Part shown: in pieces, positions 1 through 57,953 of the stretch
Layout: each line of letters begins with the position of its first letter
How positions within the stretch are numbered: the stretch's first letter is position 1
DNA from: an uncultured Candidatus Micrarchaeota archaeon
GTDB taxonomy: Archaea; Micrarchaeota; Micrarchaeia; Anstonellales; Bilamarchaeaceae
DNA: 64,000 nt
Assembly (NCBI GenBank): GCA_963800555.1
Contig: CAWDBH010000005.1
Span: 12,313 to 76,312, forward strand
Reading direction: 5' to 3'
Position numbers and translations under genes: made by a program
The notes under the pieces: model-generated
Told to the model about the DNA's origin: nothing
What the model saw: only the letters and a program-made list of their open reading frames with translations
The model's database searches: none

Positions 1-14
1 TTCCGCGGGATTTC

Positions 15-2543
15 GTGAACGCCCTTTTGGATAAAGGATGGGTAGGTAAGGAAGTGCTCCTATCGCTCAGGCCGCACCATACCCAATCGGACATCGCCGA
101 AGCTTTCCTGGAAATGAACGACAGGGCAGATGACGCTTTCGCCAGGCACGGGATCACCGCCAGGCATGAGTTCGTGAAGATACTGCTCATCGCATCTTAC
201 GGCGCATTCGAAGGGGATCTCAGGGTCATCGATCCCGAGTTCGGCATCGAGAATCTCAGCCACTATCTGCTGAGGGAAACGGATTTCGCGGATTCGAGGG
301 TGTACAATCCGAACCTCGGAGGGCTTGAGAGGCTGGAGAAAATATTATCCAGCGAAAGATTCGACCTGGTCGGCGTGTGCCCGATAGTCGTTGAGAACGA
401 CGTGGAGATAATGGCATTGGTCAGCCGCCTCAATCCGGACGCGTTGAAGGTGGCTGGAGGGCCGCTGTTCTTCGCCAGCCCCCCGGAAGATTTCCTCCGC
501 TCATTCCCGATAGACGTGGTCGTCAGAGGCCCGGGCGAGGAGGCATTGGCGCGCATCGCGCAAACGCTGTTCAGGAAAGAACCGATCTCGGATTTGAAAG
601 GGCTCTGGTCATATGAGAACGGGAGGATCACGCACACGGGCGATTTGAAACTCCTGGCTGAAGCGGCATTGGAGAACCATCCGGAGGATGTGCCCGTCAG
701 GATAGAGGATGTCTACCATGGCGTCACATATCTCAAGGCGCGCAAAAAGAAATCCACGGTCCAGGGAGACCATATCGGCTCGAAACCCATCCCTATCCAG
801 ATCACCGACCATTGCCGGGGGAGATGCTTATTCTGCGAAACCCCCAGGAACACCATGCGGATGGGGAAGGAGGGCAGGATCGCGGCTGCGCGAGCCGCCG
901 TGGAGAGGATAAAGAAGGAATTGAAGGAGGACACATCGGAAGGCCATGAGCCGCATGATGCGGTCCAGATACTGGATAACAACTTCACGACCCATCGGAA
1001 GGTGGTGGAGGAATTCTGCCATGAGGTGATAAGGCAGGGGATCCAAGGCATCAAGAAATCCTGCAAGGGGAGGGTAGACGAGTTCTGCGTCAGCCGGGAG
1101 TCTCCGGTGCCAGACAGGGAATTCATAGGCCTGATGGCGCGCGCAGGGTTCAAACGGATATACTTCGGCAACGAGAGTTTCGTGCAGGGCGCGCTGGACA
1201 GCATGGACAAGGGGATAACCGTGGAGCAGAACGAGAACGTCCTGCAGGCGGTCATCGATGCAGGCATCATCCCGGGCATGAACCTGATACTCTTCGGAGG
1301 GCTACATGACCGCCCCGCGGATGCGCTCCATACTGTGAGGAGGGCGCTCCATTTCATCGAGAAGGGAGCAACGGCGAATGTGGTGGGACGCATGTATGCT
1401 TCAGAGAGGGCGCTGCGCAAGCATCCGGAAAGGATCGGTTTCGAAACTCTTGATAGACCGGGCATGAGGGCGCCGTATAAGATGCTGAGTATGGTGTACA
1501 CGAACGCGGAGCTGGAAGCTTTCGCGGACAAGGCGGCAGCCGAATGCGAGAGCATCCTGAAATTCATCGGATACAGATATCCGTTCGAGACATTCTCCAC
1601 TCATGTGAAGGCCCTCGCCTTGTTCTGGGCGGTCGCGCACGTCTCTGGTGAGGACGAGCTCGCTGAGAAGGCCGAATGGCTGATTGACGACCACATGTGC
1701 GCGCAATCTAGGAACGTCCACCCTTATCCGAAGATCCCTTCGGTCCTGCAGAGGAAGATGCGCTATGCTTTCATAGACGGCATCTACGGTGAAGCGATAC
1801 AAGCGTATAACGAGCATCTGGAAGAGCTGGTCGGCGCGAACCCCGGGAGATTCGCTGTTTCCGGGGTCGAACCCGGGGACCTGAAGATGGATCCGTTGAA
1901 GCCGGTCATCGACATCGGTTCCCTTGCGAACGATTTATCCGTTGTGATAGGGAAGATGGAGCGGGATCTGGGAAGGCCGCTGAGGATACGCATGGCTGGA
2001 TATCCCGCGACCGGGAAAACCATGCTGCGCAACCAGCTGATAGCCCGCGGCATGGATCTCAAGCTGGTCCATCTGGACAGATACCGGCAGGTGCAAGGCA
2101 GCCAGATGATGCTTGGGATCGCCCAGGTCGAAACGAGCTATGATATGCCTGGGATCGAGAGGGGCCTTGAAGAGACTTCCGGAGAACGGTTATTGTACGA
2201 AGGGACCTGGGTACTGGCACCCGAATTCAATTTCGGAAAGAGATGGGACCTGTCGCTGGCATTCGATTTCCCCAGGCAGGTCTGGACGCCTTCGTTATGG
2301 TTCAGGCAGATATTATTCAGAGGAAAGGAGATTGACGCATTGCTCCCATCGAAAGAGCAATTGGAGGTTTACGATGCCGCATATGCCAGGCATATCGTAG
2401 ACCGGCTGTCGGACGCGGACCTGGTGATAGGCCCCGGAGGTGAGTTCAGATCCAATGGACACGTATCCTATCTGCTCGAAGAAGCGGGGATAAGACGTTT
2501 CAAGACTTCCTTTTTCATGGACCAGTTAAGGCACTTCAGATGA
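15..2543 (+). CDS. B12-binding-type radical SAM enzyme fused to a C-terminal P-loop uridine-kinase/PRK-like domain (frame open to window edge, possibly 5' partial)
   Basis: 842-aa ORF. It has the rSAM cluster motif CRGRCLFC (CxxxCxxC) after a Rossmann-like segment FDLVGVCPIVVEND..VVVRGPGEE, as in cobalamin-domain rSAM enzymes. The C-terminus has Walker A MAGYPATGKT, then LVHLDRY, LLYEGTWVL and DLSLAFD in the order seen in uridine kinase/phosphoribulokinase folds. There is no in-frame stop between position 3 and the GTG at 15. Confidence 0.7.
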   Translation: MNALLDKGWVGKEVLLSLRPHHTQSDIAEAFLEMNDRADDAFARHGITARHEFVKILLIASYGAFEGDLRVIDPEFGIENLSHYLLRETDFADSRVYNPNLGGLERLEKILSSERFDLVGVCPIVVENDVEIMALVSRLNPDALKVAGGPLFFASPPEDFLRSFPIDVVVRGPGEEALARIAQTLFRKEPISDLKGLWSYENGRITHTGDLKLLAEAALENHPEDVPVRIEDVYHGVTYLKARKKKSTVQGDHIGSKPIPIQITDHCRGRCLFCETPRNTMRMGKEGRIAAARAAVERIKKELKEDTSEGHEPHDAVQILDNNFTTHRKVVEEFCHEVIRQGIQGIKKSCKGRVDEFCVSRESPVPDREFIGLMARAGFKRIYFGNESFVQGALDSMDKGITVEQNENVLQAVIDAGIIPGMNLILFGGLHDRPADALHTVRRALHFIEKGATANVVGRMYASERALRKHPERIGFETLDRPGMRAPYKMLSMVYTNAELEAFADKAAAECESILKFIGYRYPFETFSTHVKALALFWAVAHVSGEDELAEKAEWLIDDHMCAQSRNVHPYPKIPSVLQRKMRYAFIDGIYGEAIQAYNEHLEELVGANPGRFAVSGVEPGDLKMDPLKPVIDIGSLANDLSVVIGKMERDLGRPLRIRMAGYPATGKTMLRNQLIARGMDLKLVHLDRYRQVQGSQMMLGIAQVETSYDMPGIERGLEETSGERLLYEGTWVLAPEFNFGKRWDLSLAFDFPRQVWTPSLWFRQILFRGKEIDALLPSKEQLEVYDAAYARHIVDRLSDADLVIGPGGEFRSNGHVSYLLEEAGIRRFKTSFFMDQLRHFR

Positions 2544-3890
2544 ATTCCGGGAACGATAAGTGGAATTCGACTTCTGGGTATGTTCTCTTGATGTCGAGCA
2601 TCCAGTCCAGGTCCAGGATCTGCCTCTCGGAAGAGCAGGCATGGCATTTCATCGTTTGCTGTTGGATGCGCCGTATATTATCCGGGGTCCAGACGGATTC
2701 GAAGCTGCGGGGCCCCAGTTCTGAAGTGTACCAGAAGTCCGGGTTCTCAGTGACGTCCGGATAGAAGCGGCAGGCCGTCATTTTCGCGGCGTCCTCGCTT
2801 CCATACATCGGATGGATGCTCGGCTGGAGCAACGCGATCAGGCATGTCTCCCGCGCTTTCCTTTTTCTTGGATCGAAATAGTATTTCGCATCATCGACTC
2901 TCTGGTTTATCTTCAGGGGCGACCGCACATATGTCCCTGATCCCGAGAAGGCGTTTTGCAGCGAGGCGAGCTCCTCTTCGGTACTTCGGCACGCGCCTGG
3001 TGAGAACCGGATGCCGTGGGATTTGAGGTTCGGGAGGATCGGATTGAAATGGACATAATCCACTCCCGTATCAACGAGCCTTGAGACGAATTCCATATAG
3101 TGCCCGCCATTCTCCGGATGGACGAGGGAGGTCACACCGAGCAGCATGTCTTTCGAGCGCCCGAGATCCTTCCGTTTGGAGGCGATAGACTGGATAGTCT
3201 TCAATATCCGCTCGAGCGTGATGCCTTTCGGAGGGGATTCCAGATTCCTGAACGCCTCTTCGTGGATCCCATGGATGCTGAACGTCAGGATGGAGGAGTT
3301 CCTGGCCACGCAATCGACGAATCCCTGATCTGCCCTGCTGCCGTTGGTGGTCAGGAAAGTCAAGATGCCTTTCCCCCCTGAGAATTCCATGATGCGGTCG
3401 AACTCCGGGTGGAAGATGGCCTCTCCGGATGCCCCGGAGGATATATTCTGCGCGAGCGGCCCGCCGAAACTGAGGAGATAATCCAGGGTCTGCAGATAGG
3501 TGCCGGCAGAGAGATCCGTGATTCCTTTGTTTCGTGGTCTTTCCGGCTGAAACAGAGGGTGCATGCGAAATTGCAACGATTGGTGAGGGTGGTGAATATC
3601 TGCAATGGCATGATCCGCTCGCCTTTCAGGAACCGCTCGACTGCGGAAGCGTAATCCAGAGGGGATAGCGGATAGAAGTCGTTCGGGTGGGCGTCCCTCC
3701 GTGCGCGGATATTGCCATCCACCGCCGCGATGATGCCGGAGAAAGGCCTGAAATAATATCCTACCGAGCTCAATCCCTGGATTTTCTTTTCCTCCGGAGA
3801 AAGCTCGGCGGCTTTGACCAGCCGGTCAGGCTCTGCCATGCGGAATATCTCTTTCCGCGCATTCATCACGATGTTTTTCTGCGCAAGCAT
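2536..3890 (-). pseudogene. radical SAM protein interrupted by a single frame disruption near 3540-3550 (track ORFs 3360..3890 plus 2536..3576)
   Basis: The upstream ORF carries CNFACTLC (CxxxCxxC) and then becomes low-complexity text. The overlapping ORF resumes with rSAM-core-like NKGITDLSAGTY..SGASGEAIFHPEF..TFLTTNGS..TFSIHG. The ATG at 3890 lies 4 nt after the stop of the upstream rSAM gene. Confidence 0.55.
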
Positions 3891-3894
3891 ATCC

Positions 3895-5022
3895 TCACCT
3901 GATGATCCCGAGATCCACGAAGCAATCCTTCAGGATGCAGACCGCATTGCACCGGCTGAGCGTCTTCAACGGGCCGATATTCTCGAGCGTCTCCCAGAGA
4001 TTGTCCGGAGTCACATCGGAGAGCGGTGTCCTCGACCCTTCGAATGCCGAAGAAGCGAGATACGGGCAGAAATAGACCCGCTCATCCGGACCGATCACCA
4101 CCCCGTAATCCCTCGCGGCGGTGCACTCGCTGATCGCCGGAAGCCGATTGTACCAGTTGTTCCTCAGCTTGACTACGAAATCAGGGCGAAACTCCTTGAA
4201 GGAGATGTCACCGGCCAGCAGTGTTTCCAATGCCTGGGCCAGATCAGAACTGTTCCCATCGTCCAACTTCGGGACCCCGGGATGAAGGTAAAACGGGAAT
4301 TGGAGACGCAGGAGAGAGACGCCGCGGAGCGAATTCAGGTATTCGATAGTCCATATCAGATCATGGGGGATGTGGCCCGCATCCAATGACAGATCGGAGA
4401 TTATCCAGTCCACATTGATCTGCATGGAGGACCCTTTCCTGGATTTCATTTCAGCCGCTTCCTCGAGTTTCCCCATGAGCAATCCGAGGTTCCCGGTTTC
4501 CCGGCAACCATGCACCCGGCGATATACTTCACCCAGGCGGGGATCGGCCCCGAGGGGAGAATCGATGCTGAGATTCAGCCAGTCGTTCGGGGTATTATCC
4601 GAGGTCAGGAGATCGATGTCCTCGCTCTTGAGCAGGATGCCGCTCGTGGACAGCCCTGCGGCGATCCCCCGCTCTTTCGCCTTATGGATCAATGAACGCG
4701 TCACTTCCGGATTCAATGTCGGCTCCCCGGTCATGCCGGAGATGATCACCCTCCACATCCCGATGGTGGGGTCTGCCCGGTCGTCATAGGCGGAAAAGAC
4801 CCGATCGACCAGGCCGGCAGACATCTCTGGAGGCTCGCTCCCCCAGCTTTTCCGAAACGGCAGCCCCTGGCAGTGCGGGCATGCGAAATTACACTTGGAA
4901 GACGGATGGAATTCGAGCGTGATCGAGCGCCTGAACTTATTGTCGCTGTACGACCAAGGCTGGGTCTTTCCTAGGATGGTGATGTCTTCCCCCACGGCTT
5001 TGAATGAGCGTTGTATAGTCAT
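3895..5022 (-). CDS. radical SAM protein
   Basis: Cluster motif CNFACPHC and SAM-binding-like ISGMTGEPTLNPE, with C-terminal extra cysteines (FCPY..CNAVCILKDC). I prefer the ATG at 5022 (MTIQRSF) because TATA-like boxes lie 25-65 nt upstream. The track start at 5109 remains possible. Confidence 0.7.
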   Translation of the reverse strand: MTIQRSFKAVGEDITILGKTQPWSYSDNKFRRSITLEFHPSSKCNFACPHCQGLPFRKSWGSEPPEMSAGLVDRVFSAYDDRADPTIGMWRVIISGMTGEPTLNPEVTRSLIHKAKERGIAAGLSTSGILLKSEDIDLLTSDNTPNDWLNLSIDSPLGADPRLGEVYRRVHGCRETGNLGLLMGKLEEAAEMKSRKGSSMQINVDWIISDLSLDAGHIPHDLIWTIEYLNSLRGVSLLRLQFPFYLHPGVPKLDDGNSSDLAQALETLLAGDISFKEFRPDFVVKLRNNWYNRLPAISECTAARDYGVVIGPDERVYFCPYLASSAFEGSRTPLSDVTPDNLWETLENIGPLKTLSRCNAVCILKDCFVDLGIIR

Positions 5023-5116
5023 GAAGATGCGACCCTGACGGCATATCCTATGTGATGGACTCTTTAAAAAGACACAAGCTAACACTTTATATGACCGGTT
5101 AGGCCGCATGCGTGGA

Positions 5117-5863
5117 TTATTTCATCGGCCTGGAAGCAGACCACAGATGCTCGAAATATTTCGTGAATGAATCGCGGACGAACTTATCCGCTATCACGGT
5201 TGCGACAGGCGGATCGCTATAGACCATGATGGCTACTTTATCCGAGTATATCAGTATCTCGGTTATCATGTCCGCGGCTGAAGGAAGGAGACGGAGCTCC
5301 GTGTATCTCGGACTGGCGAGAGGTATGGACATCCGGAAATCGCTGTTCAGCAGCAGCTTTTCCTTGACCCTGGTCTTCTTGACCTGCATGATGAAACTTT
5401 CCCAGAACTCGGCGCCGAGTATCTCCACGGATGCGTTCGAGACGCCCATGCCGAGGTAAGAGCCGGAACCCAACACCTCCCGCAAAAGACCCTTGAACGC
5501 TTTCCTGCCGCTGTATATCATGGCCGACTGCTTCTGCTTCGATTTCGCGAGCTCGGCGGATATCTCCGGCATGATGGAACGCGCGATGCTTCTCCTCCCC
5601 TCAAGCTCGACGGATTCGCGCTCGAGCATGCTGTTTATGGATTCTGGCGGGGCGACCGCGAACTTGCGCTTCCCGCCTTCGTTGATGTATGTGACAAGAC
5701 CCCGCTCTGAGAGTTTGTCCAGGTTATCGTATATTATATTGCGGTGGAAGCCAGTTATCTTCACCAGCTCGCTGGCTATGGAAGGGCCGTTCTTAAGGAG
5801 CGCCAGGAGGACCTTGGCCTCGTTCCTGTTGAGGCCGATCCGTTCCAGGTCGGATGAGTGCAT
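5117..5863 (-). CDS. TrmB-family HTH transcriptional regulator
   Basis: N-terminal LERIGLNRNEAKVLLALLKNGPSIASELVKITGFHRNIIYDNLDKLSERGLV is a typical TrmB winged helix. The gene is 248 aa and is divergent from the ThyA-like gene. Confidence 0.8.
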   Translation of the reverse strand: MHSSDLERIGLNRNEAKVLLALLKNGPSIASELVKITGFHRNIIYDNLDKLSERGLVTYINEGGKRKFAVAPPESINSMLERESVELEGRRSIARSIMPEISAELAKSKQKQSAMIYSGRKAFKGLLREVLGSGSYLGMGVSNASVEILGAEFWESFIMQVKKTRVKEKLLLNSDFRMSIPLASPRYTELRLLPSAADMITEILIYSDKVAIMVYSDPPVATVIADKFVRDSFTKYFEHLWSASRPMK

Positions 5864-5906
5864 GCATATATCGTGTAAGGAAGGTAATTAAATTGCTGTC
5901 ATAGGT

Positions 5907-5916
5907 TGTTGCAACA
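5907..5916. promoter_or_regulatory. 10-bp perfect palindrome TGTTGCAACA between two divergent TATA-like boxes (candidate operator)
   Basis: It lies between TTTAATTAC (minus-strand sense, about 25 nt upstream of the 5863 start) and GATAAATAC (about 28 nt upstream of the 5953 start). Both genes therefore look leaderless. Confidence 0.3.
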
Positions 5917-5952
5917 GAGAGATAAATACCTAGTGATAGAAGCTAACTTGTC

Positions 5953-6840
5953 ATGGAGATAGTGACGAGTTCCCTGGAGATAGCGTTCTATTCATTGCTC
6001 GAAGGATTCGCATCCGGAGATGCGCATGAGGTTTCCCCACGGGGACAGAAGAGCAAGGACCTCGCGAATTGCCAGTTCATCATGGAGAACCCGCGTGATA
6101 GGCTCATATCCAACCATATAAGGAATGTGGACCTGGCTGCGATAATCGGCGAGACGCTCTGGTATCTTAGGGGGAGCGACTCTTTGGATGAAATCACGTA
6201 TTATCTGCCGCGGATGAGAGAGTATAGCGATGACGGAGCCACGATAAACAGTGCATATGGCAAACGGCTCGTGCGCATGAAAAGAATCACGGAACAGCTG
6301 CGACTGGACCCGGACACGAAACGGGCATGCTACCCAGTCCTCTCTGCCAGCGATTTGGAATCGCTTCCGGATACGAAAGATTTCCCGTGCACTCTTGGAG
6401 TGCAGTTCCTCAACCGCGGCAGCGGGCTTGATATGATAGGATATATGCGATCATGCGATGTTTTCTGGGGCCTCCAGCACGACGTTTTCTTCTTCACGTT
6501 CCTGCAGGAGATGATAGCGCTGGAGACAGGTGTGCAACTTGGAAGCTATCGGCACGTGGCGGGAGTATTCAACCTCTATGAGAGGCATTACGAGAAGGCC
6601 GGGATGATACGGCAGAGCCCCAAGGAGATCAGCACTCCGATGGCTCCGCTTGAGCGCTTGGATGAACTCGAGGAGCTGAAGCGGCAAGAACCCCTCATCC
6701 GCAGCGGGAGCGATGGTCGCGAGCTCAAGGATGAGCTGCTCGAGGATTTCCGGCTCGTGCTGCTCCACAAGCGGACAAAGGATGACGGCTATCTCAGGGC
6801 AGTATCCACAAAAGCCATCAAGAGGGTCGTGGGCCGATGA
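5953..6840 (+). CDS. thymidylate synthase (ThyA) / pyrimidine-C5 hydroxymethylase family protein with Asp at the Asn177-equivalent position
   Basis: FPCTLGVQF (catalytic Cys146 context PC..QF) and RSCDVFWGLQHD align residue-for-residue with E. coli ThyA R166-S-C-D-V-F-L-G-L-P-F-N177. LWYLRG and SAYG motifs are present. There is a roughly 70-aa acidic C-terminal extension. Confidence 0.8.
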   Translation: MEIVTSSLEIAFYSLLEGFASGDAHEVSPRGQKSKDLANCQFIMENPRDRLISNHIRNVDLAAIIGETLWYLRGSDSLDEITYYLPRMREYSDDGATINSAYGKRLVRMKRITEQLRLDPDTKRACYPVLSASDLESLPDTKDFPCTLGVQFLNRGSGLDMIGYMRSCDVFWGLQHDVFFFTFLQEMIALETGVQLGSYRHVAGVFNLYERHYEKAGMIRQSPKEISTPMAPLERLDELEELKRQEPLIRSGSDGRELKDELLEDFRLVLLHKRTKDDGYLRAVSTKAIKRVVGR

Positions 6841-7547
6841 TCAGGGGCAGGGAATTCGCCAAGCGATGGCGGGAGCATGTGCAGGGCGATGGCAGCATGA
6901 TAAGGATGAAACTCCTCAATCCGAAGCTGGATAGCCTCATCGGGGACATCGAAGGCAGTAGAGCGTTGGATATCGGGTGCGGTGAGGGATTTTCGACCAA
7001 GCTCTTGGTCAACAGAGGAGCAGATGTTATCGGGGCGGATGTCAATCAATATTCGGTCGGATTCGCTGCTGGAGATATCAAGGGAGCGACTTTTCTGGTC
7101 GCGAACATAAATGAGCTGCCTTTTTTGCCTTCCAGTTTCGATCTGATATTGTGCTGCAATGTGCTGATGAACTCTTCGGAAGATGAGATGAGGGGAGGGA
7201 TTGTGGAATGGTGGAGAGTGCTCGCCCCTCACGGACGGGTCATCGCCACGATAATACACCCGCTATATTCGCTATTCGGCAACGGGTTCGCCGGAAAGGA
7301 GACCGGGCAGGTCAGACGTTATGGACTCAACGAAGAGATACGTGTGGACACCGTGGCAGGGTTCGGGGATTTCGCCGAATACCGGAGACCACTAGGCTGG
7401 TACGCCAAGGCGTTCACCGATGGCGGTTTCTGCATAAAATCTTTCGATGAGGTTATCCTCTCGAGATTCGAAGGCATCTGCGAGAAGCACGAGAAACGGG
7501 TAGGGCTGCCGATATTCGCGGTATTCGAGTTGGGCAAGATAGGTTAG
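6837..7547 (+). CDS. class I SAM-dependent methyltransferase
   Basis: Motif I ALDIGCGEGFST followed by VIGADVN. The ATG overlaps the ThyA-like stop (ATGA), which indicates translational coupling. Confidence 0.8.
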   Translation: MIRGREFAKRWREHVQGDGSMIRMKLLNPKLDSLIGDIEGSRALDIGCGEGFSTKLLVNRGADVIGADVNQYSVGFAAGDIKGATFLVANINELPFLPSSFDLILCCNVLMNSSEDEMRGGIVEWWRVLAPHGRVIATIIHPLYSLFGNGFAGKETGQVRRYGLNEEIRVDTVAGFGDFAEYRRPLGWYAKAFTDGGFCIKSFDEVILSRFEGICEKHEKRVGLPIFAVFELGKIG

Positions 7548-7782
7548 AGAAAATCACGATTCGGGCATCGCGCATTATGTCTGGGGCAACGCGAAATTCT
7601 TCTCCACCGTGATATATACGTGCAAGCGTTTCGACGATAAGAAAGCGGTCAGCATGGTGAAGGGATTCTTCAAGGCCAAAAGAGTCGCCTACCGCTCATT
7701 TTGATTTACCAGGGCGCGCAACACTCTGTAGTGGCTACCCAAAATAGGAAATATTAAAAACTGTTCCCCACTACAAAACAGC

Positions 7783-8697
7783 ATGGTGTTCATAAGAGAG
7801 AGGAAAAAAGGCGTCACGACGTATTACGAGGCAGTAGAAACGGTACGTGAGAATGGAAAGGTCAGCCAAAGAACCCTCCAGTACCTTGGAACCAGGAAAA
7901 AGATGCTGGATTACTGCAAACGGCATGGGATGAAACCTCCAAACGAATCCGAATTATTGGATAAGCATACCGCGACTATCCTCGAGAAGAAGCTGGCCCG
8001 CTTGAACAAGATGCGGCCCCTTTCCCAGAACACGCTGGAAAGCCTGAGGAAAAAGTTCGAAGTCGAGATGACGTACAACTCCAATGCCATAGAAGGGAAC
8101 CGGCTGTCCCTCAAGGAAACCTTCCTGGTGCTCGAGAAAGGGATGACGATCGGCGGGAAATCGGTGAAAGAGCATCTTGAAGCGGTGAATCACAAAGAAG
8201 CAATCCTGTTTCTTGAAAGATTAGCGGACAGGAAGAATGAGATAAAGGAAGCGGACATACTCCAGCTCCATTCTATCATCCTGAGCAAGATAGACCCGCA
8301 GAATGCAGGATTCTATCGGCAGGAACAAGTCTACATAACCCAGTCTACGCACCGCCCACCATCATTCAAAGAAGTGCCGACATTGATGAAAAAGGTTCTG
8401 GATGAGCTGAATTCCAAGGGAGATGGAAGGAAAGCCGTAGAATCCGCCACAAGATTGCATCATCTTCTCGTTTGGATACACCCGTTTGTCGACGGGAATG
8501 GAAGGGTTGCTAGGCTCCTCACTAATTTGCGCCTGATGCGTGCGACGTTCCCGCCGATAGTTCTGCAAAAGAAAATCAGGATGACTTATTATCGCGCCCT
8601 TGAAACCGGAGACGGCGGGGATCTGAAGCCTCTGGCGGGACTTATCGCGCGGGATGTGGGGCGGGCATTGGATCTCTATCTCGAAGCCGCAGGTTAG
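7783..8697 (+). CDS. Fic/DOC family protein (AMPylase-type active site) with internal inhibitory-helix motif
   Basis: Active-site motif HPFVDGNGRVARLL (HxFxDGNGRxxR). An upstream SNAIEG matches the (S/T)xxxE(G/N) inhibitory motif. Confidence 0.9.
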   Translation: MVFIRERKKGVTTYYEAVETVRENGKVSQRTLQYLGTRKKMLDYCKRHGMKPPNESELLDKHTATILEKKLARLNKMRPLSQNTLESLRKKFEVEMTYNSNAIEGNRLSLKETFLVLEKGMTIGGKSVKEHLEAVNHKEAILFLERLADRKNEIKEADILQLHSIILSKIDPQNAGFYRQEQVYITQSTHRPPSFKEVPTLMKKVLDELNSKGDGRKAVESATRLHHLLVWIHPFVDGNGRVARLLTNLRLMRATFPPIVLQKKIRMTYYRALETGDGGDLKPLAGLIARDVGRALDLYLEAAG

Positions 8698-8716
8698 CTT
8701 AATCGCCCATTCTGAT

Positions 8717-9973
8717 TCATTCATACTTCAGCGCTTCGACCGGAGGTATGGACGCCGCATTCCTCGCCGGGGCTATACCGGCGATTATGCCGATCAGGAC
8801 CGAGAATATTAGACCGGCGGCGACAAGGGTCAGGCTCATGACGCTGGGTATCCCGAGCGAAGCGAGTATGTAGGAAACCACGAAGCTCAAGGCCACCCCG
8901 AGCGCGCCCCCTATGAAGCCGATGGTGGCCGCTTCGCAGAGGAACAGGTAGATTATGTCCTTGTTTTTCGCCCCGATGGATTTGAAGACGCCGATATCCT
9001 TGGTCTGCTCCAGGACGCTCATGAACATGGTGTTCGCGACCCCTATGCCTCCTACCAGGAGGGAGATGGAAGCGATGCCGCCGAGGAATAATGTGAGCGT
9101 GTCGGTTATGCTTGAGATAGTGGACTGCAGCGTGGCAGCTGTCGTAATCGTGAAGTCCTCAGTCGTCGTGGTGACGTGATGGAGGGTTATCAGCTCATTC
9201 TCGATCTCGGATGCGACCGTATCGGTATCATGATCCGGTGAGACGACCACCACGATCTGGCTCGCATCCGTTGTCTGGTTGAACAAGTTCTGCGCCGTCT
9301 TCTGCGGGATGAAGACCGTGCTGTCGGATGTCCCCAGGCCGGATTGCTGGAGTATGCCCACCACGTGGAAGGGCACGCCGTCGATCTTAATCTGCTTGTT
9401 CAGCATGCTGAAATCGTTGAATGTCTCGTTGGCGATGTTGTACCCTATCACAGCGGAGTACTGATCGCTCGAGCTGAGGTAACGGCCGTAGGTCAGATTG
9501 ACTCCGACATCGTCCGCGAACGCACTGGGCTCGGTGCCCACTATGCTCAGCGTGGCGTTGCTCTCCTTGTATTGCACCTCTCCCCGTTTGGAGACACGGG
9601 CGTCGAGCTTATAGACTCCGGGCAGGCCTCTGAGCACATTCGCTTCCTCGAAGGTGAGGGTCGCCTGGCTGGTCTGGACCCCGAATCCTCCGCTGCCTCC
9701 CCCGCCTCCGGTCGTGGCCCTGGCAGGCCCTGCGCCGGCCCCGAACCCGCCGCCCAATCGTGATGACTGCTGGCCTCCGGGGCTTATCGTTATGATGTTT
9801 GTCCCGAGCGTGTTTATCCTGCTGTTGATGGCATCGCTCAAACCGAGGCTTATGCTGATCAAGCTGATGATGGATGCGACACCGATGACGATACCCAAAA
9901 TCGTCAGCCAGCTCCGCAGGTGGCGGTGCTGTATGTTGGTCGCCGCCAGAGCGAAGATGTCCTTCATCTTCAT
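8717..9973 (-). CDS. ABC transporter permease, MacB/FtsX family
   Basis: It has an N-terminal TM, a large extracytoplasmic domain and a C-terminal FtsX-like 3-TM bundle (FKSIGAKNKDI.. motif region). I prefer the start at 9973 because it gives an ATGA overlap with the upstream stop. The track start is 9991. Confidence 0.8.
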   Translation of the reverse strand: MKMKDIFALAATNIQHRHLRSWLTILGIVIGVASIISLISISLGLSDAINSRINTLGTNIITISPGGQQSSRLGGGFGAGAGPARATTGGGGGSGGFGVQTSQATLTFEEANVLRGLPGVYKLDARVSKRGEVQYKESNATLSIVGTEPSAFADDVGVNLTYGRYLSSSDQYSAVIGYNIANETFNDFSMLNKQIKIDGVPFHVVGILQQSGLGTSDSTVFIPQKTAQNLFNQTTDASQIVVVVSPDHDTDTVASEIENELITLHHVTTTTEDFTITTAATLQSTISSITDTLTLFLGGIASISLLVGGIGVANTMFMSVLEQTKDIGVFKSIGAKNKDIIYLFLCEAATIGFIGGALGVALSFVVSYILASLGIPSVMSLTLVAAGLIFSVLIGIIAGIAPARNAASIPPVEALKYE

Positions 9974-12289: not shown

Positions 12290-12410
12290 GGGGAGCCTCT
12301 CGTTAGATATATTTAGCTGCATTTTTAGCTTTGACTTTTGTAATGTTAATGTAACCTTAAGGTAATTGTATTTAAAAACCTATCCCTGCCTTATTCGTCC
12401 AGGTGAAACG

Positions 12411-12722
12411 ATGGCTTATGAATTAGATCTTGTTCTTCCGATTTTGCGCGTGGTCGCTGCCGTGAGCGTCGCCGCCGCGGTCGTAGTCGCGTATAAACTA
12501 TACTCCGAGACGGACCGGGGCTGGTACTGGCTCTCCCTCCTGCTCTCGGCGTTCTTCATGGCCCTGTCGCAATGGATCGTAATCATCTTCCCGCTGCTGA
12601 GAAGCGCCGAGGCGCTGGGCATATTGCGCGACACAAGCGAGATCGTGGCCACGTTCCTTTTCGCATTATCATGCTATGGCATATATAAGACCATGAAAGA
12701 CATCCGAAAGAGGGTCGAATGA
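12411..12722 (+). CDS. small integral membrane protein
   Basis: About 103 aa with three hydrophobic helices. The ATG at 12411 is preceded by GGTGA. Confidence 0.5.
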   Translation: MAYELDLVLPILRVVAAVSVAAAVVVAYKLYSETDRGWYWLSLLLSAFFMALSQWIVIIFPLLRSAEALGILRDTSEIVATFLFALSCYGIYKTMKDIRKRVE

Positions 12723-22543: not shown

Positions 22544-23557
22544 TCATAGCATTTCCCCTCTGGGCGTATCAGTGCTGCCCTTCAACGCATCTCTTTCTAC
22601 GTTGAATCGAGAGATGCCTTCATGATACAGATGCGCTATATTGAAACCTGCATTTGCATCAGCATTCTCAACCACTCCACAACTTGTGCAGTGGAACTCT
22701 TTTGCTTTCCTACTGTTGCTATCTATATGACCGCATCTGCTACATCTCTGCGACGTATACTGCGGTTCGACATAGGCAACAGGCACTCCATACTTTTTGG
22801 ACTTGTATTCTATCATGCTTTGCAACTGATAGAAACTCCAAGAGTTTAGGGAATACCTCTGCTTCTTTCTCGTTTTAGCTGTCCTTCTTATGTTTTTCAA
22901 TCCTTCAAGGACTATGATAGCCTTGTTGCTCTGTGCTTCCACAACAAGCCTCTTGCTTATCTGATGATTGATGTTCCTGACGATTCTGCTTTCTCTATTC
23001 TTGATTTTCTTTACGAGAGCATATTTGCTTTTCTTCTGCAAGTCTTTCCTGATGCTCTTGTATTTCGCATGGATGTGGTTGCATTCCTTTCCGAGCTTCA
23101 GCACTTTCCCTGTGTTGATATTAGATGCGACCAAGACATGACCAGTCGTGTTCCTATCAACGCCGATTACCTGCGCAGGAGCGTAGCAAGGCTGTTCTTT
23201 GTATGAGCAGGAGATATAAGCATAGGTATCATCAAGCTCTATCTGATTTATCTTCTCAAAGGAGGCAGGGAAGGTTATCGACAGAATCAGCTTCAGGCAT
23301 GGTAGATGAATCTCCTTTCCTACAATCTTTATGCCTTGATTCGGTATCGCCAGATTCACAGACTTGACTGCCTTTGCTCGTCTGTTTCTCGCATACTTTC
23401 TGAGGATTTGGTTTGCTATCATGGATTTCAAACCGATGTGCTTCACGTCCTTGCTGGATATTTTCCTTTCTGAGATAGCAAAGTCGGCAACCTTCTTGGC
23501 AAGACTGAGTTCATGGCTGAAATCCCTGCCGTGTTTGACTTTGTATGTCAGTATCAT
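22544..23557 (-). CDS. tnpB: TnpB (OrfB) RNA-guided-nuclease family protein, compact 337 aa
   Basis: C-terminal Zn-ribbon/RuvC-III region YTSQRCSRCGHID...FHCTSCGVVENADANAGFNI. Confidence 0.85.
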   Translation of the reverse strand: MILTYKVKHGRDFSHELSLAKKVADFAISERKISSKDVKHIGLKSMIANQILRKYARNRRAKAVKSVNLAIPNQGIKIVGKEIHLPCLKLILSITFPASFEKINQIELDDTYAYISCSYKEQPCYAPAQVIGVDRNTTGHVLVASNINTGKVLKLGKECNHIHAKYKSIRKDLQKKSKYALVKKIKNRESRIVRNINHQISKRLVVEAQSNKAIIVLEGLKNIRRTAKTRKKQRYSLNSWSFYQLQSMIEYKSKKYGVPVAYVEPQYTSQRCSRCGHIDSNSRKAKEFHCTSCGVVENADANAGFNIAHLYHEGISRFNVERDALKGSTDTPRGEML

Positions 23558-23964
23558 ATCTTATCCCACTGTCGTTCTATGTATTTCTGGATTGCTGCCG
23601 AAGAGACGTTGCCAGCAGTTGAAAGGAAATATGAACGTGTCCATAACGTCGGCATCTTCATAAGCATTGGAAACTCCCTGCGTAGATACCTTGAGCTTCT
23701 GCCCTTGAATCTCTTGACGACTATCTCAGGTCTGGTTCTCACATCTGCATAGACGAATAAATGAACGTGGTCTGGCATGATTTCCTTTGCTATTATCTTC
23801 CATTGATTCTCCTGCGCTACCTCATCACATAGCTCTGATAGACGATTCTTGATGTCGCCTACCAATAACTTTCTCCTGTATTTTGGGCAGAACACAAGAT
23901 GATAGTTTATCATGACGACAGACGTTGTATTGTGTTTATACTCCATAGATAGATTATACTCCAT
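23554..23964 (-). CDS. tnpA: IS200-type Y1 (HUH) transposase TnpA
   Basis: YHLVFCPKYRRKLL and PDHVHLFV (HUH motif), with a C-terminal Tyr-containing helix. The gene is 136 aa. Confidence 0.85.
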   Translation of the reverse strand: MEYNLSMEYKHNTTSVVMINYHLVFCPKYRRKLLVGDIKNRLSELCDEVAQENQWKIIAKEIMPDHVHLFVYADVRTRPEIVVKRFKGRSSRYLRREFPMLMKMPTLWTRSYFLSTAGNVSSAAIQKYIERQWDKI

Positions 23965-24109
23965 CTAATTCATATACTGTTGCATTCATCTAATATCTGG
24001 GCATTCATCCCACGATTAAAAGTCGTGGGCTTTCTGCCCTATGGAAGTGTAAGCGCAAATCTATTTTGTCGAGCTTTTCCTTCATTATTATACAATATAT
24101 GGAAATATT

Positions 24110-25141
24110 GGCTCTGTAGAAACCCTCTCTTAAGTCCAGCTTAAGACGAGGCAACAAAAAATCTCCTCTAGCTGGACTGACCGGTAAATGTTGTAGGCAA
24201 AGTACTTCAGCTTCAATTCCTTGCGCCGCATCCAGATGCCCTTGCTATAGAGGGCGTCTCCGAAGACCCTCTTTACAACGGAGTTGATTGTTTCTATGAG
24301 GTTGCGCTGCCGCCCCCTCAAAGCGAAGGTGAGCCGATTCCAGTTGTTCAAAACCCTGCGCCTTATCTGGCTTTTGCATTTGTGCCTGTCGGTTTCCTTG
24401 ATCTTGATGTACGGCACGGCCTTCAGAAGCTTCTCCACGAGAAGGATCTCATCCTTGCCATCGTACCCCTTGTCAGCATGAACCTCTGAAATCTTCTTCA
24501 AGAGTATCAGGGCGCGTTTCATCAGCCTCCTGAAATCAATGATATCATGAGACGGGAAATTCCTTAGCCTGCAGCAGACGATGACCTGATTTGTCAGGTC
24601 CCCAACGAATGAACCTTTGAGGAACGTCTTATGCGTAGGCTTGCGTTTTATCCTCCTCACGAAGTAGCTGCTGGCATGCGAAGCAGGATATCCTGAAGAG
24701 TCTATCCCTACGACGGCTCCCCTGATCAATTGATCCCCTATGATGAGGATTGCGACCACTGCGATAAGGGTATCCAATACCTGTGAGTCCAGCCTCTTGA
24801 TGAACTTCTGGAGGGTAGTGAAATGAGGTATCTTCGTGAGACCCATCGCTTGCATCAAGTCGCTGCCAATGCCGTCAACAGTATCCCTGTAATCCTCGTC
24901 AGTCTTCTGTTTCAGGACAGCTATCGCTAGGAGCTGATGCTGAGTGAAGTCTTTTCTTGAGAATTTGTTTCCATATTCAGGCAGCACGTACTTGGCTGCC
25001 TGCTGGGCCCTAACCGCTACTCTAATTAACTTTGACGTTCTCTTTTGCATGGATTTCGCCGCTGGGAGGAGTCAAGGCCCTGGTAAGCCTCGACGATGAA
25101 ACCCATTGGCATACTTATCAATTAAGCATTTCTACAGAGCC
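24110..25141 (-). mobile_element. IS4/IS5-superfamily insertion sequence with 13-bp perfect terminal inverted repeats and 8-bp target-site duplication
   Basis: IR GGCTCTGTAGAAA at 24110..24122 matches its reverse complement at 25129..25141. A flanking direct repeat GAAATATT occurs at 24102..24109 and 25142..25149. Confidence 0.85.
24130..25050 (-). CDS. DDE transposase (IS4/IS5 type)
   Basis: GIDSSG, HADKGYDG and RNLIETINSVVKR (a YREK-type signature). Confidence 0.8.
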   Translation of the reverse strand: MQKRTSKLIRVAVRAQQAAKYVLPEYGNKFSRKDFTQHQLLAIAVLKQKTDEDYRDTVDGIGSDLMQAMGLTKIPHFTTLQKFIKRLDSQVLDTLIAVVAILIIGDQLIRGAVVGIDSSGYPASHASSYFVRRIKRKPTHKTFLKGSFVGDLTNQVIVCCRLRNFPSHDIIDFRRLMKRALILLKKISEVHADKGYDGKDEILLVEKLLKAVPYIKIKETDRHKCKSQIRRRVLNNWNRLTFALRGRQRNLIETINSVVKRVFGDALYSKGIWMRRKELKLKYFAYNIYRSVQLEEIFCCLVLSWT

Positions 25142-27647: not shown

Positions 27648-28880
27648 TCACGTCAAAGCCGCTCTCAACCCTTCGAGCACTTTTTCAAAAAAGCCTTCTG
27701 GTATGGTCTTGCCCAGCTTAGGCGGGCAGCCGGCGTTCATCATGCCGCCGAACCTGCGAAGGTTCTCGCTTCCGGCCCAGATTTCCGCGAGGCTTTGATT
27801 CTTCAGGTTACCTTGTATGCTCACGTCATCTCCGGGGCACCTGAAAGCCAACCCATCGCGGCGGACGAACATGCCGTGCCCTAGCTGCTGGCAGGGGCGC
27901 ACGCCCACGTACGGGCTGACACCGTCGCGCTCCACATCTTCGAGCGTGTAGATGCCGTTCTGGATCGCCCAGAGATTTATCTTCAAATACAGGCTGACGA
28001 GTTCGGCCTCGGATGGATTGATGGAATTATAGGTGGAGGCGTCTTTGCAGGAACCGGAAACCATTGAGGGGGAAGAGATGGCGTACATGTGCCTCCGCCT
28101 CGCCCAGACGTGGATGTCGAAGATCTCATCAATGTTGCTCTTAAGTATCGGGTTAAGAATGAGCGATAGCCGTGTAGGCTCGCCCGGGATGAAATCATTG
28201 AAACCCGAGGCTGCGAGAAGCTCCATAGCGCGGTTCCGGACGTCAGGGTAATTGCTGCGCCCTACTATCTCCGCCTGGGTCTTTGGATGGAACGAATTCG
28301 CGCCCATGAGTATAGTGGCGCCGAAATCGCGAAGCCGGATCGCCAGCTCCTCTGGGGTCAGCCCGTGGACACTTCTAGAGATGCGCCCGTCGCCCAATGC
28401 CGTAGCTTTCGTGAATATCATAGGCGTGATGTCGCGCGCCGCTAGGTAATCCAGGAAATGGAGCAGCGTCTTCGTTTCCAGGGGCTCTCCAGGTCCGATT
28501 ATCTTCACCGAACGCAGCCCAAGAGCCTTCCCTTCGTCCACGACGCGCAGGACTTCGGAATCGGTGAGGAGCTCATTGCAGATCTGCGGCTGCATGCTTA
28601 GCGGCGTATACCAAGCATATAAGCTTTCGGAATCAAGGAGCTTTTTGCGGACCTGCAGCAGTCTCGATGTGGGATTGAAGCAATGAGCGCACCTGAGGCT
28701 GCAGCTAGGCCTTCCTGTCATATCCAGGTCCATGGATAGCATCCGCCCTTTCTGCGCGGACTCGGTGAGCACGGATTGGGGAAAATTCCAACCCTTCACA
28801 TCGTTCACATGGTCCGCAGGGAACTTGCCTGAGAACTTCTCTGGTATTTCCGGGAACTTCAGCTTCTTTTGTGTTTGCAT
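27648..28880 (-). CDS. radical SAM protein
   Basis: CSLRCAHC (CxxxCxxC), IIGPGEPL, and a C-terminal Cys-containing region (FRCPGDD..AGCPPK). Confidence 0.75.
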   Translation of the reverse strand: MQTQKKLKFPEIPEKFSGKFPADHVNDVKGWNFPQSVLTESAQKGRMLSMDLDMTGRPSCSLRCAHCFNPTSRLLQVRKKLLDSESLYAWYTPLSMQPQICNELLTDSEVLRVVDEGKALGLRSVKIIGPGEPLETKTLLHFLDYLAARDITPMIFTKATALGDGRISRSVHGLTPEELAIRLRDFGATILMGANSFHPKTQAEIVGRSNYPDVRNRAMELLAASGFNDFIPGEPTRLSLILNPILKSNIDEIFDIHVWARRRHMYAISSPSMVSGSCKDASTYNSINPSEAELVSLYLKINLWAIQNGIYTLEDVERDGVSPYVGVRPCQQLGHGMFVRRDGLAFRCPGDDVSIQGNLKNQSLAEIWAGSENLRRFGGMMNAGCPPKLGKTIPEGFFEKVLEGLRAALT

Positions 28881-29812: not shown

Positions 29813-30075
29813 ATGGGCTAGAGTGGGGCCAGGGGTCCCAGCACCGCGCATCCCCTTTAAGCGGCTCGAATGCCCGGGGCGTTCTGCAGTGCATGCATGC
29901 CCTTCGTTTCAAGCGTTGACGCCCTGCCTTATGTGGCGGCGCGATGCGTGAATCTGGTCAGGCCGAAAGGAGCAGCCATAAACGTTTTGAGCCGTGCTTG
30001 TGAGATACAGGGTCGAGTGTAGATGCGAAGGCTCCTTGCATGTATTGCAGTGCAAACCGGGAAGCCCACCCATGA
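29813..30075 (+). ncRNA. signal recognition particle (7S/SRP) RNA, ends approximate
   Basis: The domain IV motif GGUCAGGCC-GAAA-GGAGCAGCC at 29956..29977 has a GNRA tetraloop and the AGCA/CAGG loop pattern of the SRP54 site. A long interrupted helix-5-like pairing joins four segment pairs: 29873-77/30057-61, 29885-93/30046-54, 29894-900/30038-44 and 29901-06/30026-31. Alu-like 5' hairpins are GGGGCCAGGGGUCCC and CCGC..GCGG. TATA-like CTTAAAAAG lies about 27 nt upstream. Confidence 0.65.
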
Positions 30076-33577: not shown

Positions 33578-34870
33578 GAATAAGGGTGAATTACCCGGCG
33601 CTAAAGCGCTGGGCTTCCTGCTTCCTTGAAGATACTTGCCGGTTATGTTTATAACGGGTAGTGGTCCCTTCTCCGCAGGCTTGACGTTCCGGCATTCCAC
33701 CGGTAGCCTTTGCAAGTATGTTTATCGCAGCATTGAGATCCCTATGCATTGATGCACCGCATGGGCAATCATGCCACCTCTCAGCAAGCGATTTTTTCCG
33801 GATCAGACCGCAGTTGCTGCACATCTGCGATGTGTAGGCAGGATTCACCAGCACGACTTCGCAACCAGCTTCTTCCGCTTTGTAGCTGATCATGCTGGCA
33901 AACTCTGCCCAACTGCAATCCAATACTTCTTTCGCCAGGAAACATTGTGCCAATCCTTCGTTATTCAGGTCTTCCATGGCTATGAACGAATGATTTTTCA
34001 CAAGAGTTCGACTTGTTTTGTGCAAGAAATCTCTTCTCTTGTTTGTGAGTCTCTCATAGGCAATCGCAACCGCTTTCCTGCATTTGACTCTGTTTGAGCC
34101 GCCCCTCTGTTTCTTCGACATCCTCCTTTGGGCAAGCGCCAACCGCTCTTGCGCCAATCTGAGATTCCGTGGGTTCTCTATCTTCGAGCCATCGCTCAGA
34201 TAGGAGAAATTTTCTATCCCAAGATCGATTCCTACTTTGGGTTTCTTGTTTCTCTTGGGCATCTTTTTCTCGAATTCAGTCGTAAAAATTGCATGCCACT
34301 TTCCAGAATGGGATTTCTTTACGGTCAGGGTCTTGATCGTTCCTTGCAATTCTCGGTGTTTTCTGATTGCCACGCTTCCGATGCCAGATAGTTCTAGCCG
34401 ATCTTTGAGTTTGAAACCGAATTGAGGGTATGTGAATGATTTCACCCGTTCAATCGATTTGAACCTGGGAAATCCAGCCGTCTTGCCTGCTTTCTTTCTT
34501 ACAATCACTCCGTATAAGGATTTCACAAGCCGATCAGCAACGTTCTGGGCGACCTGAGAATAGAGCTTGGTATCCTTTGTCAAAAGAAAAAGCTGCCCTT
34601 TGGTTGGAAATTTCTTTGTTTTCTCGTAGTATCCTTTTGTGTACTCAAGCAGGGAATTCCAGAGCGACTTGCATTCGTATAGATGCTGGTCCAGCGACTT
34701 CTCCTCGCTTTTCGAAGGATAGATACGGTATTTCCAGGCCCGCATTACTTTCATGATATATTTACCAGAAAGGTCATATATAATCAAAGACAGGGTTCAT
34801 TTCCGCGGAAATATCATCTGATAGAACAAAATCGGCCCTTTCATCCCATATTTGAAAATATGGGTTTTCT
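33578..34870 (-). mobile_element. solo-tnpB IS200/IS605-type element (no tnpA), ends approximate
   Basis: An upstream 9-bp-stem hairpin CCCATATTT-ga-AAATATGGG lies at 34845..34864. An 8-bp-stem hairpin CCCGGCGC-taaa-GCGCTGGG lies at 33594..33613, inside the tnpB 3' end. Confidence 0.45.
33591..34754 (-). CDS. tnpB: TnpB (OrfB) RNA-guided-nuclease family protein
   Basis: N-terminal RAWKYRIYPS pattern, and C-terminal YTSQMCSNCGLIRKK..HDCPCGASMHRDLNAAINI. The start could be 34787, 34754 or 34745. Confidence 0.85.
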   Translation of the reverse strand: MKVMRAWKYRIYPSKSEEKSLDQHLYECKSLWNSLLEYTKGYYEKTKKFPTKGQLFLLTKDTKLYSQVAQNVADRLVKSLYGVIVRKKAGKTAGFPRFKSIERVKSFTYPQFGFKLKDRLELSGIGSVAIRKHRELQGTIKTLTVKKSHSGKWHAIFTTEFEKKMPKRNKKPKVGIDLGIENFSYLSDGSKIENPRNLRLAQERLALAQRRMSKKQRGGSNRVKCRKAVAIAYERLTNKRRDFLHKTSRTLVKNHSFIAMEDLNNEGLAQCFLAKEVLDCSWAEFASMISYKAEEAGCEVVLVNPAYTSQMCSNCGLIRKKSLAERWHDCPCGASMHRDLNAAINILAKATGGMPERQACGEGTTTRYKHNRQVSSRKQEAQRFSAG

Positions 34871-57846: not shown

Positions 57847-57861
57847 GAATGGATTACTTAT

Positions 57862-57878: not shown

Positions 57879-57953
57879 TTTTTCTAAGAAAAAAATCGCC
57901 TTTTGACGCGGCCTGATTAAGGCTCGCGCTGCATGATCGATAAAAAAAGGAAA

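Follow-up and report, generated by a model that had tools for sequence, protein, structure and literature searches.

The closest described counterparts of one part of the locus presented here are the MilA/BcmA antimetabolite pathways. In the bacimethrin pathway, cytidine monophosphate (CMP) is converted to hydroxymethyl-CMP (hmCMP), then to 5-hydroxymethylcytosine and finally to bacimethrin (PMC12345177), and the Clostridium botulinum cluster is arranged in the order hypothetical protein, thymidylate synthase and methyltransferase (PMC12345177 Fig. 3). For MilA, the choice of base falls to Asp186, an aspartate at this position selecting cytosine and uracil enzymes carrying asparagine; Lys133' and Ala176 form a pair that sets the preference for ribose, and the A176S replacement moves that preference towards deoxy-CMP (dCMP) (PMC5175136). 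Roles have likewise been assigned to residues of MilB, among them the catalytic Glu103, and a 'P-F-(R/K)' motif is reported for MilB homologues specific to hmCMP (PMC4081090). Some bacterial systems that contain domains of the thymidylate-synthase and aGPT-Pplase types have been validated in defence or are predicted to act there (PMC13092281). The locus in question lies at the left end of a 64,000-nucleotide (nt) stretch, here called the window, from an uncultured Candidatus Micrarchaeota archaeon (contig CAWDBH010000005.1, positions 12,313 to 76,312), and centers on a gene for an enzyme of the ThyA superfamily (the ThyA-like gene). An earlier note had taken six genes at this end as a single pyrimidine-themed radical S-adenosylmethionine (SAM) cluster. 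By comparison of related contigs, this supposed cluster appears to consist of two modules, independent of each other and neighbors in no other genome recovered. Module A (5117-7547) would be a MilA/BcmA-type hydroxymethylase with a methyltransferase under TrmB control, similar to the opening of bacimethrin or mildiomycin biosynthesis, and Module B (1-5022) part of a separate radical SAM (rSAM) cluster; to this reading of two juxtaposed, unrelated modules we assign a probability of roughly 0.55.

The division into two modules is drawn because each recurs without the other in the contigs of relatives. Every other locus recovered by comparative synteny has Module A without Module B or Module B without Module A. 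At least five related Micrarchaeota contigs carry Module A and none of these has rSAM genes (L002, at 1.57 Mb, L003/L004, L007, L010 and L093). In the larger of the relatives' contigs synteny is kept before the ThyA-like gene, with SUF, EamA, peptidyl-prolyl isomerase, GTPase and TrmB genes in that order, and Module B in this genome sits where relatives have the GTPase and isomerase genes. On the other side, TrmB, ThyA-like and methyltransferase genes are all missing from the contigs that carry Module B homologues, namely L008, L009 (the same locus as L090 and L174) and L091/L092. The proposal that the three rSAM genes serve the same pathway as the ThyA-like gene finds no support in this comparison, with at least five contigs keeping TrmB-ThyA, with or without the methyltransferase, in the absence of rSAM genes, and the rSAM loci having none of the three. 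The earlier note had held that rSAM genes of well-known, unrelated families lacking conserved linkage to the ThyA-like gene would count against its proposal; conserved linkage was indeed not found, but the rSAM proteins do not belong to well-known families.

Open reading frames (ORFs) occupy 15..2543, 5953..6840, 6837..7547 and 7783..8697 on the plus strand and 3895..5022 and 5117..5863 on the minus strand. These are the ORFs that had been described, with the exception of 2536..3890, which consists of two. The ATGA overlap between the ThyA-like and methyltransferase genes can be read directly at 6837-6840, as can the 4 nt (3891-3894) that separate the pair of rSAM genes on the minus strand. 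The description of six genes around one divergent promoter applies to the TrmB and ThyA-like genes, which flank the divergent region, but not to the rest, since the minus-strand rSAM genes are downstream of TrmB and the rSAM fusion gene at the window edge is on the opposite strand. The fusion gene (plus strand) and rSAM2 (minus strand) are convergent and overlap by 8 nt at 2536-2543.

The gene at 5953..6840 on the plus strand encodes a predicted MilA/BcmA-like cytosine-nucleotide C5 hydroxymethylase. Membership in the ThyA superfamily is clear from the Pfam Thymidylat_synt match (PF00303; 1.9e-18, 67 bits, cut-off 24.3) and from the presence of the catalytic cysteine. Of the structures in the PDB, the MilA CMP 5-hydroxymethylase is matched best, at 1.1e-34, and the best thymidylate synthase at 5.5e-15. 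The protein is under the cut-off of all seven NCBIfam thymidylate-synthase models, the best of which give 37.5-53.8 bits against 108-427; examples are 51.9 against 108 and, for the archaeal thymidylate-synthase model, 37.5 against 175. PHROG 5131 is matched at 3e-43. At the residue level, Cys146 corresponds to the MilA nucleophile Cys155, Glu67 to the catalytic Glu68, Tyr209 to the ribose-binding Tyr218, and Asp177 to Asp186 of base choice; Cys146 also aligns with thymidylate synthase Cys146. Asp177 lies within 'QHDVFFF', at the position of E. coli Asn177 of thymidylate synthases, and C146, R166, D177 and Y102 are invariant in a 16-member family alignment. Judged by sequence, the enzyme is cytosine-type, and the same suggestion by the earlier note is borne out by the aspartate at the Asn177 position and by MilA as the best match. 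Close relatives are few, with only eight (56-80% identity) among 5.8 billion proteins; two of the eight are in GTDB species representatives, both labelled Candidatus Micrarchaeota. One further observation concerns P0006, a fusion of glycosidase and hydroxymethylase at 10001-11371 of L002, which has asparagine for aspartate at the base-specificity site ('QHNVFFF'). Under the rule for MilA and thymidylate synthases this exchange would switch the enzyme from cytosine to uracil.

Relatives of Module A add a glycosidase to the hydroxymethylase. The ThyA-like proteins of L002 and L003/L004 bear a 160-amino-acid (aa) N-terminal extension, and in L005, also from Micrarchaeota, a separate 152-aa gene immediately upstream of the ThyA-like gene is homologous to the extension of L002/L003 (43% identity). 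A profile of this domain has as its sole significant PDB matches the BcmB CMP N-glycosidase 4jen (1.3e-5), the MilB CMP/hmCMP hydrolase and BlsM, and the residues equivalent to MilB Glu62, Asp78, Ser97, Gly99 and Glu103 do not vary in the archaeal domain, which thus keeps the catalytic glutamate and the residues that contact ribose and phosphate. With a MilB/BcmB-like CMP N-glycosidase fused or adjacent in close relatives, the likening to the MilA/BcmA antimetabolite pathways proves apt. The second gene of the operon, 6837..7547 on the plus strand, encodes a class I SAM-dependent methyltransferase (Pfam Methyltransf_11, 2.8e-18), and both this assignment and the ATGA overlap agree with the methyltransferase coupled to the ThyA-like gene that the earlier note had described. 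In L002, L010 and L007 an orthologue with 66-69% identity immediately follows the ThyA-like gene. At the same overlapping position in L093 begins a cut 152-aa gene, a candidate orthologue, and the methyltransferase is absent from L003/L004 and L005. Its nearest PDB sequences are small-molecule methyltransferases, ToxA among them.

Divergent from this operon is the gene for a TrmB-family winged-helix regulator (5117..5863, minus strand). The N-terminal TrmB winged-helix profile (Pfam PF01978) is matched at 1.8e-13 and 50.6 bits, above the cut-off of 25.6, in accord with the TrmB-like regulator previously proposed; against the NCBIfam equivalogs for sugar-sensing TrmB, the protein is far under the cut-offs. 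Orthologues of 75-80% identity are divergent from the ThyA-like gene in L002, L003/L004, L007, L010 and L093, across a spacer of about 90 nt. In the window, the divergent control region between the two arms spans 89 nt (5864..5952) and contains A/T-rich TATA-like boxes and a TTGCAA-centered palindrome, TGTTGCAACA, read directly from the sequence at 5907-5916. The mean column identity of this region in a five-sequence alignment is 86%, which is above the conservation of the flanking proteins. Neither a riboswitch nor any other RNA element was found at E<=1 in positions 1-9000, including a thiamine pyrophosphate riboswitch that would link Module A to thiamine. In L003, genes of the AbiEi/AbiEii, MNT-HEPN and PemK toxin-antitoxin types are inserted around the TrmB-ThyA locus (5429-7719 and 12369-12707); mobile genes for defence or toxin-antitoxin systems can thus be taken up on either side of Module A.

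From these components a working model of Module A can be proposed. The TrmB-family regulator would act at the 89-nt divergent region that drives the operon of the ThyA-like enzyme and the methyltransferase. The ThyA-like enzyme would place a hydroxymethyl group on C5 of CMP or dCMP by means of Cys146 and a one-carbon donor of the methylene-folate type, and the methyltransferase may next methylate the hydroxymethylated product. In the sister genomes, the MilB/BcmB-type N-glycosidase would free the base. For the version in the window, either a glycosidase would be supplied from elsewhere in the genome or the pathway would end at a methylated hydroxymethyl-cytosine nucleotide. Since the sister genomes add the glycosidase in a bacimethrin-like order, a 5-hydroxymethylcytosine-type product is suggested, and the likeliest product class would be a 5-hydroxymethylcytosine-derived small molecule, that is, a bacimethrin-like antimetabolite and not modified DNA. 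A cytosine-antimetabolite reading of Module A is plausible on these grounds. A full-text search of the literature for CMP hydroxymethylase together with archaea gave nothing. If true, the proposal would describe the first archaeal (DPANN/Micrarchaeota) MilA/BcmA route to 5-hydroxymethylcytosine-derived metabolites, one with its own TrmB-type switch and, in the sister genomes, with glycosidase and hydroxymethylase naturally fused. It would also suggest that tiny symbiotic archaea produce pyrimidine or thiamine antimetabolites against competitors or to sway their hosts.

A number of points weigh against the proposed division and against an antimetabolite as the product of Module A. The whole 64-kb window holds no glycosidase homologue, so that the window pathway may be served in trans, incomplete or nucleotide-ending, and bacimethrin itself could not be made from the window genes alone. 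In the relatives that do have the glycosidase domain, 'S-I-T' takes the place of the 'P-F-(R/K)' motif. The class I methyltransferase coupled to the ThyA-like gene is by its position a putative counterpart of BcmC, and a scan of the ORFs between position 1 and 37.7 kb gave no ThiD2 kinase, thiaminase I or dedicated transporter. The sugar-pocket signature of the ThyA-like enzyme is mixed: the MilA Lys133 site has a lysine (ribo-type, 'DPDTKRA'), the Ala176 site a serine (deoxy-type, 'MRSCDVF') and the His216 site an asparagine. With this combination of lysine, serine and asparagine, the enzyme is a naturally occurring case on which the rule published for the ribose or deoxyribose preference of MilA can be tried. 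With regard to the separation of the modules, TrmB and rSAM3-rSAM2 run in the same direction with a gap of only 94 nt, which contains a TATA-like element; for this reason read-through from TrmB is conceivable and may co-regulate rSAM3-rSAM2 in this genome. Finally, both modules are present in related populations of one sample. Because L002 and L092 stem from Micrarchaeota-like populations of that same sample, it is possible that both modules occur, unlinked, in one genome.

Turning to Module B, its largest gene encodes an enzyme with a putative B12-binding domain and a radical SAM domain followed by an orphan C-terminal P-loop domain (1..2543, plus strand; Pfam Radical_SAM). The N-terminus is cut by the window edge, and no upstream stop is present within the window. 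Where the earlier note had an 842-aa cobalamin-type rSAM protein, the type is made plausible by the Radical_SAM domain (4.6e-12, 46.9 bits; aa 261-435, nt 795-1319) and by a sub-threshold B12-binding match (1.7e-5, 25.1-26.9 bits against a cut-off of 32.1; aa 98-181, nt 306-557), but the length is not, as the gene runs off the window and its full product in the source contig is 901 aa (P0049). The best NCBIfam matches are BchE, HpnJ, the MJ_1487 family and PhpK, with BchE, HpnJ and PhpK reaching 30-46 bits against cut-offs of 480-600. A word-indexed search of 5.8e9 clustered proteins returned P0050 and P0051 as the only real homologues. The C-terminal domain, about 280 aa in length (1695..2540, plus strand), has a Walker A motif, GYPATGKT (1998-2021), followed by a 'LLYEGTW' strand. 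Pfam returns nothing for this domain even at E<=10. The best PDB profile match, the 'putative kinase' 2rhm, covers the P-loop only and at E 0.22 is insignificant, and an AlphaFold2 (AF2) model from a 2-sequence alignment was unusable, with a predicted local distance difference test (pLDDT) score of 43. Exhaustive HMMER searching of 1.84e9 representatives gave four matches, namely P0050, the further fusion P0064, one fragment and P0066. The last of these, the sole relative that is not a fusion, is a protein of 1067 aa in which three such P-loop modules follow one another in tandem, and it matches PRK weakly (0.0018). For uridine kinase/PRK (PF00485) at the C-terminus, no profile or structure gives support beyond the Walker A motif and the weak match of P0066. 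The uridine-kinase/PRK-like C-terminus of the earlier note is consequently left unsupported: there is no Pfam match at E<=10, the PDB E is 0.22, the pLDDT is 43, and only Walker A is left.

Of the two tightly packed rSAM genes described previously, 3895..5022 (Radical_SAM) is intact and 2536..3890 is frameshifted into two ORFs. The latter gene, rSAM2 (2536..3890, minus strand; about 451 aa), has a CNFACTLC motif and C-terminal cysteine motifs, and its orthologues are intact, being a single gene of 451-455 aa in L091 and L009. The interval of 1355 nt is not a multiple of three and contains overlapping ORFs in different frames (3360-3890 and 2536-3576). DNA alignment with the intact L091 orthologue locates a 1-nt deletion at about 3516/3517 (GAATCACG-GATC against GAATCGCACGATC), which may be either a real mutation or an assembly error. 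Over 4 kb, a single indel sets the window apart from L001, which was assembled independently from the same population. The sister contig L092 carries comparable frameshifts and its near-identical twin L091 does not. The uninterrupted giant ORF of 2951 aa at 52786-61641 (minus strand) counts against general assembly indels in the window. The intact rSAM3 (3895..5022, minus strand; 375 aa) matches Pfam Radical_SAM at 1.4e-7 and has nine homologues with 45-76% identity. Its CxxxCxxC motif, which all three Module B genes of the window share, is joined by four invariant C-terminal cysteines, the full invariant set being C44, C48, C51, C300, C319, C358 and C362. The C-terminal cysteines are consistent with an auxiliary cluster of the twitch/SPASM-like kind; Pfam gives no SPASM match, and the region is of low confidence in the AF2 model (predicted template modeling score 0.80). 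Foldseek matches are to generic rSAM enzymes only (DesII, SuiB, SkfB, CteB, MoaA, viperin, anSME and BlsE), with a template modeling score of about 0.5 and 14-16% identity.

In the contigs of rSAM3 or fusion homologues, the rSAM genes are always together, and three or four other lineages are represented. L008 has the order rSAM2-like gene, SPASM rSAM gene, 427-aa orphan gene, fusion and rSAM3. L091/L092, with proteins 74-83% identical to those of the window, have rSAM3, rSAM2, fusion, 434-aa orphan gene and SPASM rSAM gene; P0055, which is 88% identical to the L091 copy, probably shares this context, without TrmB. The locus recovered as L009, L090 and L174 (41% GC, and bacterial, as it has RecO) consists of rSAM3, two rSAM2 paralogues and a short fusion that lacks the P-loop domain. 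A scan of JGI metagenomes yielded nothing beyond the L090 organism, and the viral contigs held no rSAM3 relative. The complete Module B would on this comparison be a set of five genes (SPASM rSAM, orphan of about 430 aa, fusion, rSAM2 and rSAM3), three of which are in the window; the SPASM rSAM and orphan genes presumably lie just left of window position 1. The orphan protein has neither a Pfam nor a PDB match. As a weak guess, Module B could tailor a phosphorylated or ATP-activated small molecule by radical chemistry in several steps, one of them a cobalamin-dependent C-methylation. With a fusion that matches no curated family and for which billions of proteins yield about four relatives, it is a clean target for enzyme discovery. 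A fourth radical-SAM gene of the window (27648-28880, minus strand; 410 aa) weakly resembles the L008 SPASM rSAM (25% across 298 aa).

Beyond the close family, the ThyA-like enzyme has 322 bacterial and 114 viral relatives with 30-42% identity. Among the bacterial loci (L012-L089), 55 of 80 have aGPT-Pplase3/ADDT and M78-peptidase genes and a small unannotated gene alongside, and NUDIX and dCTP-deaminase-like genes also occur. This cassette of aGPT-Pplase3/ADDT and M78 genes is apparently a widespread, uncharacterised system of DNA hypermodification or defence. In the Firmicutes loci L012 and L016-L021, the ThyA-like gene lies amid two genes for AMP-binding enzymes, an APH-type phosphotransferase gene and a gene of 77-80 aa, the size of a carrier protein, a composition that suggests nucleoside natural-product biosynthesis. 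The window has none of the aGPT-Pplase3, M78 peptidase, NUDIX or dCTP-deaminase-like partners of the bacterial relatives, and none of the phage-type hypermodification partners, such as a deoxynucleoside monophosphate (dNMP) or 5-hydroxymethyldeoxyuridine kinase, an aGPT-Pplase or a glycosyltransferase.

These relatives bear directly on an alternative in which Module A works at the level of deoxynucleotides, either by making 5-hydroxymethyl- or 5-methyl-dCMP for DNA or by poisoning nucleotides as a defence against viruses, in the manner of the bacterial defence systems with a thymidylate synthase that were validated recently (PMC13092281). The serine at the MilA Ala176 site is deoxyribose-type by the published rule (PMC5175136), PHROG phage 'thymidylate synthase' families are matched at 3e-43 alongside the 114 viral relatives, DNA-hypermodification genes of the aGPT-Pplase3/ADDT kind adjoin 55 of the 80 bacterial relatives, and the neighboring Fic gene matches PADLOC PDC-S04/SoFic; set against these, the lysine at the Lys133 site is ribo-type, and Module A provides no dNMP kinase, dCTPase or glycosyl- or pyrophosphoryl-transferase partner. 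The close relatives, moreover, carry a fused N-glycosidase of the CMP type, an enzyme that breaks the nucleotide down, and the locus is syntenic across genomes, unlike a variable island. The ThyA-like enzyme has no PADLOC match; PADLOC makes no defence assignment for it or for the fusion, and the rSAM proteins have weak viperin-core matches only. A role of Module A in DNA modification or defence is on balance unlikely. That the ThyA-like gene is simply the housekeeping thymidylate synthase is extremely unlikely. The Pfam Thymidylat_synt match is above its cut-off and the 64-kb window has no second thyA or thyX, yet the base-specificity site has aspartate in place of asparagine, the seven NCBIfam models are missed, MilA is the better match by 20 orders of magnitude and relatives are fused to a CMP glycosidase. 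The earlier note had named a sole housekeeping thymidylate synthase as the outcome that would undo its proposal, and Asp177, the missed equivalog models and the far better match to MilA make such a role very unlikely.

A different objection concerns the division itself. All of the genes could belong to a single pathway, with the rSAM enzymes and the P-loop domain turning a hydroxymethyl-pyrimidine nucleotide into a hypermodified nucleotide or a nucleoside antibiotic. The genes are adjacent, with TrmB co-directional with rSAM3-rSAM2; a nucleotide would be a fitting substrate for a P-loop domain; rSAM3 and rSAM2 have weak viperin-like matches over the rSAM core; and similar Micrarchaeota-like populations harbor relatives of each module. 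We regard a joint pathway as improbable all the same, given that conserved linkage of the modules is not found at any other locus recovered, that rSAM2 is frameshifted in this genome, that the kinase-like assignment is unsupported and that the viperin matches, at 38 bits against a cut-off of 180, cover the generic core only. In a variant of this idea, the rSAM cluster was captured under TrmB in this lineage and its rSAM/P-loop enzymes tailor the methylated hydroxymethyl-cytosine nucleotide, the product remaining a nucleotide because the glycosidase is missing. This would be a long shot; if it were true, a DPANN archaeon would make a hypermodified pyrimidine nucleotide or nucleoside antimetabolite not known before. 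Module B might also be a maturation cluster for a ribosomally synthesized and post-translationally modified peptide (RiPP). The SPASM-type rSAM of the full cluster, the peptide maturases SuiB, SkfB and CteB among the Foldseek matches of rSAM3, and an N-terminal extension of about 100 aa on rSAM2 that could recognize a peptide are all compatible with a RiPP. Still, Foldseek equally returns the small-molecule enzymes DesII, MoaA, viperin and BlsE, no small ORF beyond the large genes is conserved in four loci and no protease or transporter partner is seen, so this role for Module B is improbable as well.

Outside the two modules, the remaining genes of the window are archaeal and chromosomal in type (CDC48, RIO kinase, NFACT, aspartate carbamoyltransferase and TnpB elements). 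The gene next door to Module A, 7783..8697 on the plus strand, receives the Pfam Fic assignment, as the earlier note had it, and falls in the PADLOC candidate families PDC-S04 and SoFic. In the independent assembly L001 of the same population, one base fewer near 8623 cuts the Fic protein to 280 aa. It is followed at 8.7-12.3 kb by a MacB/FtsX ATP-binding cassette system that is unrelated to a bacimethrin-type transporter. Two TnpB/Cas12f-like ORFs of the IS200/IS605 type and a DDE transposase are located at 22544-25050 and 33591-34787 and coincide with a drop in GC content to 0.45 between 22 and 24 kb; together these features point to mobile-element insertions. A signal recognition particle RNA at 29813-30069 (plus strand) runs into the ends of two ORFs from the program-made list, and matches the bacterial large model, Rfam RF01854, with 71.9 bits despite the archaeal context.

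Among known systems, the class B (cobalamin-binding) rSAM enzymes BchE, HpnJ and PhpK are the nearest to the Module B fusion, in which a putative B12-binding-like domain precedes a CxxxCxxC core. It differs from them in scoring 10-fold or more under the family cut-offs, in an extra N-terminal region of at least 59 aa and in the added orphan P-loop domain of about 280 aa, which is found in about four proteins among 1.84e9 representatives. For Module A, the phage T4 dCMP hydroxymethylase and the ThyA-like genes linked to aGPT-Pplase3/ADDT share the superfamily, the aspartate at the base-specificity site and the deoxy-type serine. With MilA of the MilA/MilB pair of mildiomycin from Streptomyces rimofaciens, the ThyA-like enzyme has in common the catalytic cysteine, the glutamate, the tyrosine, the cytosine-specifying aspartate and the lysine at the Lys133 site. 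The differences from MilA are the archaeal host, serine for Ala176 and asparagine for His216. Compared with MilB, the glycosidase of the relatives is an N-terminal fusion without the P-F-(R/K) motif, and the window has no counterpart; the remaining mildiomycin genes are replaced in Module A by the methyltransferase partner and the TrmB regulator. It is the BcmA-BcmB-BcmC cluster of bacimethrin in Clostridium botulinum that offers the same content and order as L002, with N-glycosidase, hydroxymethylase and methyltransferase, and BcmB (4jen) is the top PDB match of the archaeal glycosidase domain.

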